DNA from: a virus
Taxonomy: Duplodnaviria > Heunggongvirae > Uroviricota > Caudoviricetes
Direction: 5' to 3' (one strand)
Virus record (IMG/VR): IMGVR_UViG_2548876947_000004
Length of the DNA stretch: 64,000 nt
Shown here piece after piece: positions 57,918 through 59,631 of this stretch. A program made the translations under genes and the position numbers. The notes under the pieces were generated by a model, which saw only the letters and a list, made by a program, of their open reading frames with translations, was not told the DNA's origin and did not search any database. Numbering within the stretch: position 1 is the stretch's first letter; every line of letters starts with the position of its first letter.

Positions 57918-57929
57918 CCCTGTTACGCC

Positions 57930-59265
57930 TTATCCTATGTGCCGCCCCCCCAGACTCCTCATGGTGGGTATATAAGGCACAGTTTTCCTCCCGACTATTT
58001 TTGCTTAAAATAGTGACATGAAACAACAGTTGTCATTCAAATTCCGGTTAAGACCAGATGGTCAACAGGAGCGTCAAATGAGCCGCTTTGCCGGAGCTTG
58101 TCGTTTCGTTTTCAACCGTGCTCTAGCGCTTCAGAATGAGAATCATGAGGCCGGTAATAAATACATCCCTTACGGGAAAATGGCCTCCTGGCTGGTTGAG
58201 TGGAAAAACGCCACTGAAACGCAATGGCTTAAAGATTCGCCCTCACAGCCATTGCAACAGTCACTGAAAGACCTTGAGCGGGCTTACAAAAACTTCTTCC
58301 AGAATCGGGCTGCTTTTCCCCGATTCAAAAAGCGGGGACAGAATGATGCATTCCGCTACCCGCAGGGCGTTAAGCTCGATCAGGAAAACAGCCGTATTTT
58401 TCTGCCGAAACTGGGCTGGATGCGCTACCGGAATAGCCGTCAGGTCACGGGTGTTGTGAAAAATGTCACGGTCAGCCAGTCCTGCGGTAAGTGGCACATC
58501 AGTATTCAGACAGAAAGTGAAGTATCAACTCCGGTTCACCCTTCAGCATCAATGGTCGGGCTGGATGCTGGCGTGGCTAAACTCGCCACGCTGTCAGATG
58601 GCACGGTCTTTGAGCCTGTAAACAGTTTTCATAAAAACCAGAAGAAGCTGGCGAGACTTCAGCGACAGTTAAGCCGCAAGGTCAAATTCAGCAACAACTG
58701 GCAGAAGCAGAAACGCAAAATACAGCAACTGCATTCCCGTATCGCAAATATCCGCAGAGACTACCTTCATAAAGTCACAACGATCATCAGCAAAAACCAC
58801 GCAGTGATTGTCATTGAGGATTTGAAGGTTAAACACATGTCAAAGTCAGCGGCGGGTACGATAAGTCAGCCGGGGCGCAATGTCCGGGCAAAATCAGGTT
58901 TAAACCGTTCGATACTGGATCAGGGCTGGTATGAAATGCGCCGCCAGCTTGAGTACAAGCAGCTCTGGCGTGGCGGTCAGGTACTGGCAGTGCCGCCAGC
59001 GTACACAAGCCAGCGTTGCGCGTGCTGTAGCCATACAGCGAAAGAAAACCGCCTGTCACAAAGTAAATTCGTGTGTCGGGCTTGTGGATATACAGCGAAC
59101 GCCGATGTAAACGGCGCTCGTAACATTTTAGCGGCGGGGCACGCCGTGCTTGCCTGTGGAGGGATGGTGCAGTCAGACCGCCCGTTGAAGCAGGAACCCT
59201 CCGAAATGATTCAGGCGACAGCCTGAACATAGCAGGAATCCACACCCCGAAGAGCGTGGAGGATG
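57930..59265 (+). mobile_element. TnpB-only IS200/IS605-family (IS1341-like) element; ends approximate
   Basis: Single tnpB ORF with about 90 bp 5' and 40 bp 3' flanks inserted between ddrB and ddrA; no tnpA nearby. Confidence 0.6.
58018..59226 (+). CDS. tnpB: TnpB (RuvC-like, RNA-guided nuclease family) of IS200/IS605
   Basis: RuvC-I GLDAGV, Ruv[11 protein letters not shown], zinc finger CACCSH...CRACG, Ruv[14 protein letters not shown]. Confidence 0.9.
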
Positions 59266-59631
59266 TCACGCTGCCTCTTTAATGTTGGCGGCTATCCATG
59301 CCGCCGTGTGCTGTTTAACCTGGTCCAGGTCGATGTATGTGCCAACATATTGACTCAAGTCCTGTAACGTACCGATAAATGCATCAGTGCTCTGATCGAC
59401 GAATTTATCAGCCAGGAAATCAGCAACCAGTTTTGGCACACCATCATGTTCCGAAGGTTGTTTCTCCTCGCCACTACCGCCGCCAGACGCGCCGTACCCC
59501 ATCTGTTGCATGATCTGGTCAATTTCATCGCTGATATCCAGCAACTCCATGCCACTCGCGGTAGCCGCTTTGGACATCAGAGCATCCAACTTATCGCTGA
59601 GATCCATTAACTCAATAGCTGATAGTGTCAT
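59266..59631 (-). CDS. Small protein downstream of the darA-like gene (ddrA position)
   Basis: 121-aa ORF overlapping the darA-like stop by 4 nt; its stop lies in a hairpin at the IS edge. Confidence 0.45.
   Translation of the reverse strand: MTLSAIELMDLSDKLDALMSKAATASGMELLDISDEIDQIMQQMGYGASGGGSGEEKQPSEHDGVPKLVADFLADKFVDQSTDAFIGTLQDLSQYVGTYIDLDQVKQHTAAWIAANIKEAA

Follow-up and report, generated by a model that had tools for sequence, protein, structure and literature searches.

How does the gene of a TnpB nuclease come to stand, with no transposase beside it, between two genes of a P1-like phage-plasmid, and what might it do there? The locus belongs to the IMG/VR virus record IMGVR_UViG_2548876947_000004, from which a stretch of 64,000 nucleotides (nt), referred to here as the window, was analysed. 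A 402-residue open reading frame (ORF) is flanked there by a pair of anti-restriction genes, one ddrB-like and one ddrA-like, both of which lie on the opposite strand (Table 1). The ORF very probably belongs to an insertion sequence (IS) of the IS609 type that carries tnpB only, that inserted a single time next to a TTAT tetranucleotide and was then spread by recombination, that encodes a predicted guide (omega) RNA aimed at the uninterrupted ddrA-ddrB junction, and that is probably immobile.

Ends, target site and relatives of the element

The ends of the element can be read from the junctions of related phages. In P1 (AF234172) and P7 (AF503408) the ORF is absent and ddrA and ddrB are 12 nt apart. 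The empty P1 and P7 junction reads CCTTAT^GCTGCCTCTTTAATG, or CCTTAT^GCTGCC immediately at the insertion point (a caret marks the point of insertion or cleavage), and the occupied junction reads CCTTAT^CCTATG...GTCAC^GCTGCC. In the alignment of P1, P7, the window and RCS47 both ends are unambiguous. The element creates no target duplication and has no terminal inverted repeats. Five other copies, in varied flanking contexts, are likewise flanked by TTAT and one by TTAC, and TTAT on the left and TCAA on the right are the cleavage sites reported for IS609 (Venturini et al. 2019, PMC6906374). Judged from these junctions, entry 3' of TTAT by the single-strand mechanism of the IS200/IS605 family is shown.

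The original prediction, made from the window sequence, had recognized IS-like ends and proposed the alignment of ddrA-ddrB junctions, which in P1, P7 and RCS47 yielded the exact ends and the TTAT target. Its limits for the element, 57918..59268, have to be corrected to 57934..59269, the left one having been misplaced by 16 nt. The left flank does not abut the ddrB start codon, as had been supposed; the 12-nt spacer and TTAT, 16 nt in all, lie between them.

The left end is strongly altered. In full, the canonical IS609 left end reads TTAT^CCGGTGCGCCGTAAAA-CCCCGTCC-TTCA-GGGCGGGG-ATATAAGG…, in which AAAA-CCCCGTCC-TTCA-GGGCGGGG is the hairpin with the four bases 5' of it. Both the inner hairpin and these four bases have diverged in the present lineage: a run of C replaces AAAA, and the hairpin has become a weaker one of C and G. 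The ATATAAGG motif is kept, and the outer stem has been retained by means of paired changes.

The canonical right end is …GGAAT-CCACGCCC-TTCA-GGGCGTGG-AGGATGTCAA^. All copies have the subterminal hairpin CCACGCCC-loop-GGGCGTGG followed by AGGATGTCA(A/C), and one pair of the hairpin has undergone a compensatory change. At the ddrA/ddrB site the last four bases are TCAC, not TCAA, in every one of the 21 copies examined. In the window copy two mutations break two pairs of the right-end hairpin. A different hairpin, AGCGTG (59253-58)/CACGCT (59267-72), had been noted at this end previously. It is present, but it is not a feature of the end, because it straddles the boundary between the element and the flank and uses three flank bases. 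The 5' arm comes from the conserved CCACGCCC-loop-GGGCGTGG hairpin, of which it is one half. The AGCGTG/CACGCT hairpin is a by-product, an alternative fold that arises once the conserved right-end hairpin is weakened, and not an end structure.

Nucleotides 101-1335 of the insert, which extend from codon 6 of tnpB to the right end, are about 94% identical to insQ (IS609) of Escherichia coli K-12. When the whole element is compared with IS609, the first ~60 nt have diverged and the last base is different. The TTAT target, the right-end hairpin and the 10-nt tail that follows it are common to the two, whereas the left end of the window element, with its run of C and altered hairpin, is identical to the canonical one in only about half of its positions and the right terminus has C for A in its last position (TCAC, not TCAA). 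A further difference is the divergent, usually pseudogenised tnpA of chromosomal IS609, of which the window element has none. The element is thus a non-autonomous member of the IS200/IS605 family, of IS609 (insQ) type, that has lost tnpA and retains tnpB between its two ends.

Sequences of this type are abundant in the host. A search of 5426 complete E. coli genomes matched insQ in 5014, nearly over its full length in 4868. A divergently oriented tnpA pseudogene precedes insQ in K-12 (BW25113) and F9792. At ~2047-2477 of the loci extracted from these two strains the tnpA reading frame is interrupted, by an internal stop in one strain and by a frameshift in the second, and insQ is intact. The IS609 population of E. 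coli, as represented by BW25113 and F9792, looks largely non-autonomous.

The TnpB-only layout, in which a left end of ~84 nt is joined directly to tnpB, occurs also in the P1-like pHNSHP24-3 (NZ_CP104791.1) and in plasmid copies from Klebsiella and Salmonella. The pHNSHP24-3 copy is a second, independent insertion of an IS609-type TnpB-only element. It lies between lyz and the head-processing gene pro, at 2479-3815 of the extracted locus, and its ends are canonical (TTAT^…TCAA^); a change of TGA to TTA in the stop codon of tnpB makes the ORF two codons longer. A 1340-bp 'IS609' in the P1-like plasmids pJIE250-3 and pSvP1, termed an 'IS609-like sequence' in the latter, was described by Venturini et al. 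2019 (PMC6906374). The lyz/pro site of pHNSHP24-3 appears to be the pJIE250-3 site. The sequence in pSvP1 (MN510446), going by published coordinates alone, is likely to be at the ddrA/ddrB site.

The same ddrA/ddrB insertion is annotated in RCS47, SJ46, vB_EcoM-813R1, pTB502 and pSJ_98, variously as insQ (RCS47 and SJ46 among them), 'transposase IS605' or 'RNA-guided endonuclease TnpB'. The copies of RCS47, SJ46, pTB502 and pSJ_98 agree with the window copy, which is 94.5-96.6% identical to them (97-98% in the left flank), in the exact insertion point, in TCAC at the right and in the left-end variant family. Eight changes in the left end and one additional mismatch in the right-end hairpin are private to the window copy.

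IS608 of Helicobacter pylori is the reference element of the IS200/IS605 family. Its target is TTAC, its right cleavage site TCAA is located no more than 10 nt 3' of the right hairpin, and guide bases are situated 5' of the feet of the hairpins. The geometry of the window element agrees with this arrangement in the target tetranucleotide 5' of the left end, in the right cleavage site close behind the right hairpin, in GAAT 5' of the foot of that hairpin and in the lack of target duplication. The nucleotide sequences are unrelated, however, and IS608 is autonomous, with tnpA and tnpB in the same orientation.

Two other phage records contain relatives of this tnpB under different names. A 647-nt internal fragment, 94% identical, is annotated as ORF348 in the filamentous phage If1 (U02303/NC_001954), and a complete gene, 94.6% identical, is annotated as a 'putative virulence protein' in Morganella phage IME1369_01 (KY653118). 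In both records the same IS family appears to have been mis-annotated.

Table 1. Position of the element, its parts and the neighbouring genes in the 64,000-nt window
Feature	Coordinates	Strand	Remarks
IS609-like TnpB-only IS200/IS605 element	57934..59269	+	1336 bp; alignment with P1, P7 and RCS47 junctions
TTAT target, left cleavage tetranucleotide and predicted target-adjacent motif (TAM)	57930..57933	+	empty P1 and P7 sites
Left end	57934..58017	+	84 nt; ATATAAGG motif at 57970-57977; outer stem TGTGCC/GGCACA (57939-44/57976-81)
tnpB (insQ-like)	58018..59226	+	402 residues; RuvC D183/E267/D363; zinc-finger C334, C337, C353, C356
Predicted omega (guide) RNA scaffold	59123..59269	+	147 nt; closing stem 59123-28/59261-66 around four hairpins
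Scaffold hairpin 1	59131-36/59142-47	+	consensus fold
Scaffold core, RAGATH-18-like	59153-59196	+	consensus fold; sub-threshold Rfam match
Scaffold hairpin TTCAGGC/GCCTGAA	59210-59227	+	overlaps the tnpB stop codon
Scaffold right-end hairpin	59239-59260	+	consensus fold
Right cleavage tetranucleotide TCAC	59266..59269	+	TCAA in canonical IS609
Flank, would-be guide	59270..59289	+	GCTGCCTCTTTAATGTTGGC; antisense to the last ddrA codons
ddrB-like	54930..57917	-	995 residues, intact; ddrB-ParB domain
ddrA-like	59266..59631	-	121 residues; protein ends ...KEAA as in P1
darA	59628..61547	-	DarA_N and DarA_C domains

The TnpB protein and its predicted guide RNA

Three Pfam domains, HTH_OrfB_IS605, OrfB_IS605 and Cas12f1-like_TNB, are present in the 402-residue product, all above their gathering scores (PF01385, PF07282 and PF12323 were used to define the TnpB class). 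The NCBIfam model NF040570, guided_TnpB ('RNA-guided endonuclease TnpB family protein'), is matched with 380 bits against a cut-off of 100. Residues 5-377 can be aligned to the TnpB protein of ISDra2 (8BF8/8EXA) with an E value of 6e-54, and the alignment equates D183, E267 and D363 with the ISDra2 catalytic residues D191, E278 and D361. Both CxxC pairs, C334/C337 and C353/C356, are kept. The complete TnpB signature that the original prediction had read in the ORF is therefore borne out by Pfam, NF040570 and the ISDra2 alignment.

The comparison was made with ISDra2, whose TnpB has been studied together with its omega RNA (Karvelis 2021; 8EXA, 8H1J). All catalytic and zinc-binding residues are common to the two proteins, and for the window element a guide scaffold is predicted that takes in the last stretch of tnpB and the right end. 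The window protein differs by an insertion of 15 residues after the E267 motif, and the TAM predicted for it is TTAT, compared to TTGAT for ISDra2 in the literature.

Two other identities of the ORF were considered. A TldR-like, nuclease-dead regulator was rejected because the D-E-D triad is intact. The P1 gene iddB was rejected too: iddB sits inside ddrB, on the opposite strand, and the P1 junction is empty.

A search of the whole 64-kb window with an IS609-family TnpA fragment (tblastn) gave no match to tnpA, the best E value being 2.3. Nor is there space inside the element for a Y1 (HUH) TnpA, the left end being just 84 nt long. That tnpB is unaccompanied by tnpA, as first proposed, is in accord with this search, and because tnpA is lacking the element is a non-autonomous TnpB-only derivative, many members of the family being of this kind.

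The tnpB gene is well preserved. The ratio of nonsynonymous to synonymous substitution rates (dN/dS) is 0.17-0.36 in comparisons with close copies, including those at the same site (dS no higher than 0.13), and about 0.08 in comparisons with distant copies, which are 77% identical. On these ratios, the window tnpB is evolving under purifying selection. The ORF is intact, with its D-E-D residues, in 14 of the 15 full copies at the ddrA/ddrB site. The sole broken one at this site, in phage vB_EcoM-813R1 (1834-3166 of the extracted locus), has small indels; the element there measures 1333 bp, and ddrB, too, is annotated as shortened. This breakage may be due to homopolymer sequencing errors rather than to real decay.

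The last part of the element is predicted to fold into a guide RNA scaffold. RNAalifold, applied to the last 230 nt of nine copies, produced a consensus of 66 pairs, five of which have compensatory changes. When the window, RCS47, pTB502 and K-12 copies are folded one at a time, the same architecture is predicted for all four. This conserved predicted scaffold stops precisely where the element does on the right and is consistent with the guide RNA that had been anticipated from the 3' end of tnpB. The 20 nt that follow, GCTGCCTCTTTAATGTTGGC, adjoin TTAT in the empty P1 and P7 junctions and occur once in the window.

A terminator-like hairpin, TGGCGGCTATCCATGCCGCCG, with a T-rich tail is found at 59286-59306 (+), 17 nt past the element and within the ddrA antisense sequence. 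It is native P1 sequence, and read-through transcripts with the guide could end there.

Spread, mobility and possible function

The insertion is present in a minority of P1-like genomes. In PLSDB, 72 plasmid records have the occupied junction and 355 an uninterrupted one, and in IMG/VR 15 contigs have the exact occupied right junction compared to 57 with the empty junction. Occupancy of P1-like junctions is thus ~17-21%, or one in five or six. Among complete E. coli genomes the variant left-end family (64 genomes) is nearly confined to plasmids, and the full-length matches among those listed are on plasmids of ~86-154 kb. Because all copies at the site have one variant left end and the TCAC terminus, the pattern indicates a single insertion event into a P1-like genome.

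The flanks of 12 carriers and 48 non-carriers were compared. Within the first 100 nt of the left flank, carriers differ from each other by 0.7% and from non-carriers by 2.1%. Linkage of the flank to the element extends only ~100-300 nt from the junction, and beyond ~300 nt the two groups are intermixed. Because the flanks are intermixed, the element must have been carried across P1-like backbones by recombination.

The mixing of carrier and non-carrier haplotypes beyond ~300 nt is also all that could be held to suit the opposite history, in which the sequence was ancestral to the P1 family and was deleted from P1, P7 and others; nothing specific favors such a history, which is extremely improbable. 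The original prediction would have had to be abandoned if the sequence occupied this junction throughout the P1 family, but it is a real insertion: P1, P7 and most other junctions are empty. The empty junction, moreover, consists exactly of TTAT and the right flank, with the ddrA stop codon and the 12-nt spacer intact. This is not what a random deletion leaves behind, but it is what is expected of a site before insertion or of a seamless joint after TnpA excision. In addition, a chromosomal IS matches the element at 94% identity, and relatives with the same ends are found at other loci.

The window copy is itself a mosaic. Between 58134 and 58733 it has 0-3 differences per 100 nt from the insQ gene of F9792 and up to 9 from the copies at the same site, whereas the stretch 58834-59269 is nearly identical to the allele of pTB502 and SJ46. 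This pattern suggests that an IS609 of a host chromosome has converted part of the phage-borne copy.

The window copy is probably no longer able to transpose or be excised, since it has no TnpA, the guide bases and hairpin of its left end have diverged and its right cleavage site is mutated. The pairing of AAAA with TTAT, on which part of this argument depends, is a rule taken from IS608 and applied to IS609 by analogy.

If the element cannot move, does the nuclease still have a use? TnpB proteins are guided by RNA (Karvelis 2021, PMC8612924) and have been linked to homing and retention of their elements (Karvelis 2021, Meers 2023, Zedaveinyte 2023). In the mechanism proposed here, a transcript would cover tnpB and the final ~147 nt of the element, and TnpB would process it to an omega RNA. 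The 3' guide of this RNA would be the adjoining ddrA sequence GCTGCCTCTTTAATGT..., that is, the 16-20 nt past the right end (GCTGCCTCTTTAATGTTGGC). The complex would cut DNA that contains TTAT-GCTGCCTCTTTAATGT, which is present in the empty P1-like junction and would be created at the donor joint upon excision. Repair from a copy that bears the element would then restore or spread it. The occupied site would be spared, because the left end separates the TAM from the target. Since the predicted guide together with TTAT is the empty junction, as found in P1, P7 and 57 IMG/VR contigs, the nuclease, if active, would target element-free alleles.

Several observations weigh against this account of the element. 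The match of the scaffold to the Rfam family RAGATH-18, which is now known as the IS607 TnpB guide-RNA scaffold, is below threshold (28.1 bits, E value 0.012, gathering score 44.9) and is a hint, not a sign of membership. Two mismatches occur in the terminal hairpin of the window copy, whose fold has a predicted energy of -52 kcal/mol compared to -63 for that of RCS47, and a z-score of -1.7. A scan of the + strand of the left end for a sigma-70-like promoter found none. The signature of purifying selection on tnpB could in part reflect gene conversion from chromosomal copies. Finally, the pattern in the flanks fits an old insertion followed by recombination and homing with short conversion tracts equally well.

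Some of these points also feed the alternative that the element is an inert relic, whose tnpB seems conserved merely on account of a recent insertion or of repeated repair by recombination with the many insQ copies of E. coli host chromosomes. In favor of it are the lack of tnpA in the window, the divergence of the left end, the mutated right cleavage site, the weakened right-end hairpin, the failure to detect a promoter and the ~600-bp patch at 58134-58733 that is nearly identical to chromosomal insQ. A relic, however, would not be expected to have an intact ORF and D-E-D residues in 14 of 15 same-site copies, nor a dN/dS of 0.17-0.36 even among same-site copies separated by a dS of up to 0.13. 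The compensatory changes in the stems of the scaffold and the paired changes that maintain the outer stem of the left end also argue against decay. The relic explanation carries some weight but is, on balance, unlikely.

TnpB and its guide might be kept as a homing or exclusion device that acts between P1-like phage-plasmids. If so, a resident carrier would cut incoming or co-resident P1-like genomes that have the empty TTAT-GCTGCCTCTTTAATGT junction. The target genome would be either destroyed, which would give the carrier an edge over incompatible plasmids and superinfecting phages, or converted by recombinational repair. Such a device would explain why one insertion is found in different Punavirus species, why the flanks are intermixed and why tnpB is intact without a transposase. 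The support for it is the match of the predicted guide to the empty junction and nothing further, and this role is considered doubtful.

Flanking genes and wider meaning

The insertion has replaced the stop codon of ddrA. Read on the - strand, TTAT is ATAA: an A that closed the final Ala codon, and the TAA with which ddrA ended ancestrally. The element's right end (…GTCAC) provides G and TGA in their place, so that the 3' end of ddrA has changed from GCA TAA to GCG TGA, and the stop codon is now at 59266-59268 (-). Only the last Ala codon and the stop are altered, and the DdrA protein is unchanged because the element supplies the new TGA. This exchange of stop codons without a change in the protein had been missed in the original prediction.

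The gap between ddrA and ddrB is now 1348 nt, compared to 12 ancestrally. The original prediction supposed that the insertion separates ddrB from its operon promoter; in this explanation ddrB and the genes downstream would be cut off from the late darA-operon promoter by a polar insertion, with a partial anti-restriction defect as the outcome. There are grounds for expecting some such effect: 1336 nt of untranslated antisense sequence now lie between the genes, which can no longer be translationally coupled over the 12-nt spacer; the element contains two terminator-like sites on the - strand (58228-58210 and 58652-58637), and Rho-dependent polarity is plausible on general grounds. The terminator-like sites, however, are no commoner than in shuffles: five were found compared to 2.4 +/- 1.8 in shuffled sequence, which is no enrichment. 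The counts of the promoter and terminator scans do not rise above those of shuffled sequence and support neither a tnpB promoter nor polarity on ddrB. The native 12-nt spacer, with the ribosome-binding region of ddrB, has remained attached to ddrB, and the gene is full-length in the window, RCS47, SJ46, pTB502 and pSJ_98. Over the first 600 codons the dN/dS of ddrB is 0.03-0.10 among carriers, as low as the 0.09 of P1 and P7, which are the single carrier-free pair in the comparison. By this measure ddrB is under purifying selection that is equally strong in carriers and non-carriers, which argues against loss of ddrB function. The insertion, moreover, persists in ~17-21% of P1-like elements. 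Loss of translational coupling and some polarity on ddrB are possible, but polarity that results in an anti-restriction defect is quite improbable.

Just downstream of ddrB, at 54027-54461 (-), there is a 144-residue ORF that is rich in CxxC motifs, with at least four pairs.

The insertion as such is ordinary and already known, being annotated in published P1-like phages. IS609 has been described previously in P1-like plasmids, and TnpB of the insQ type is present in ~90% of complete E. coli genomes. No paper in which TnpB was tested in P1-like phages turned up in the literature searches. The present comparison describes the element to the exact base, including its TTAT target, its TCAC end and the exchange of stop codons that preserves DdrA, and it draws attention to a copy that is probably immobile and yet has an intact nuclease gene and a predicted guide scaffold aimed at the empty allele. 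Such a copy would be a natural and readily testable case of TnpB homing between phage genomes rather than within one chromosome.

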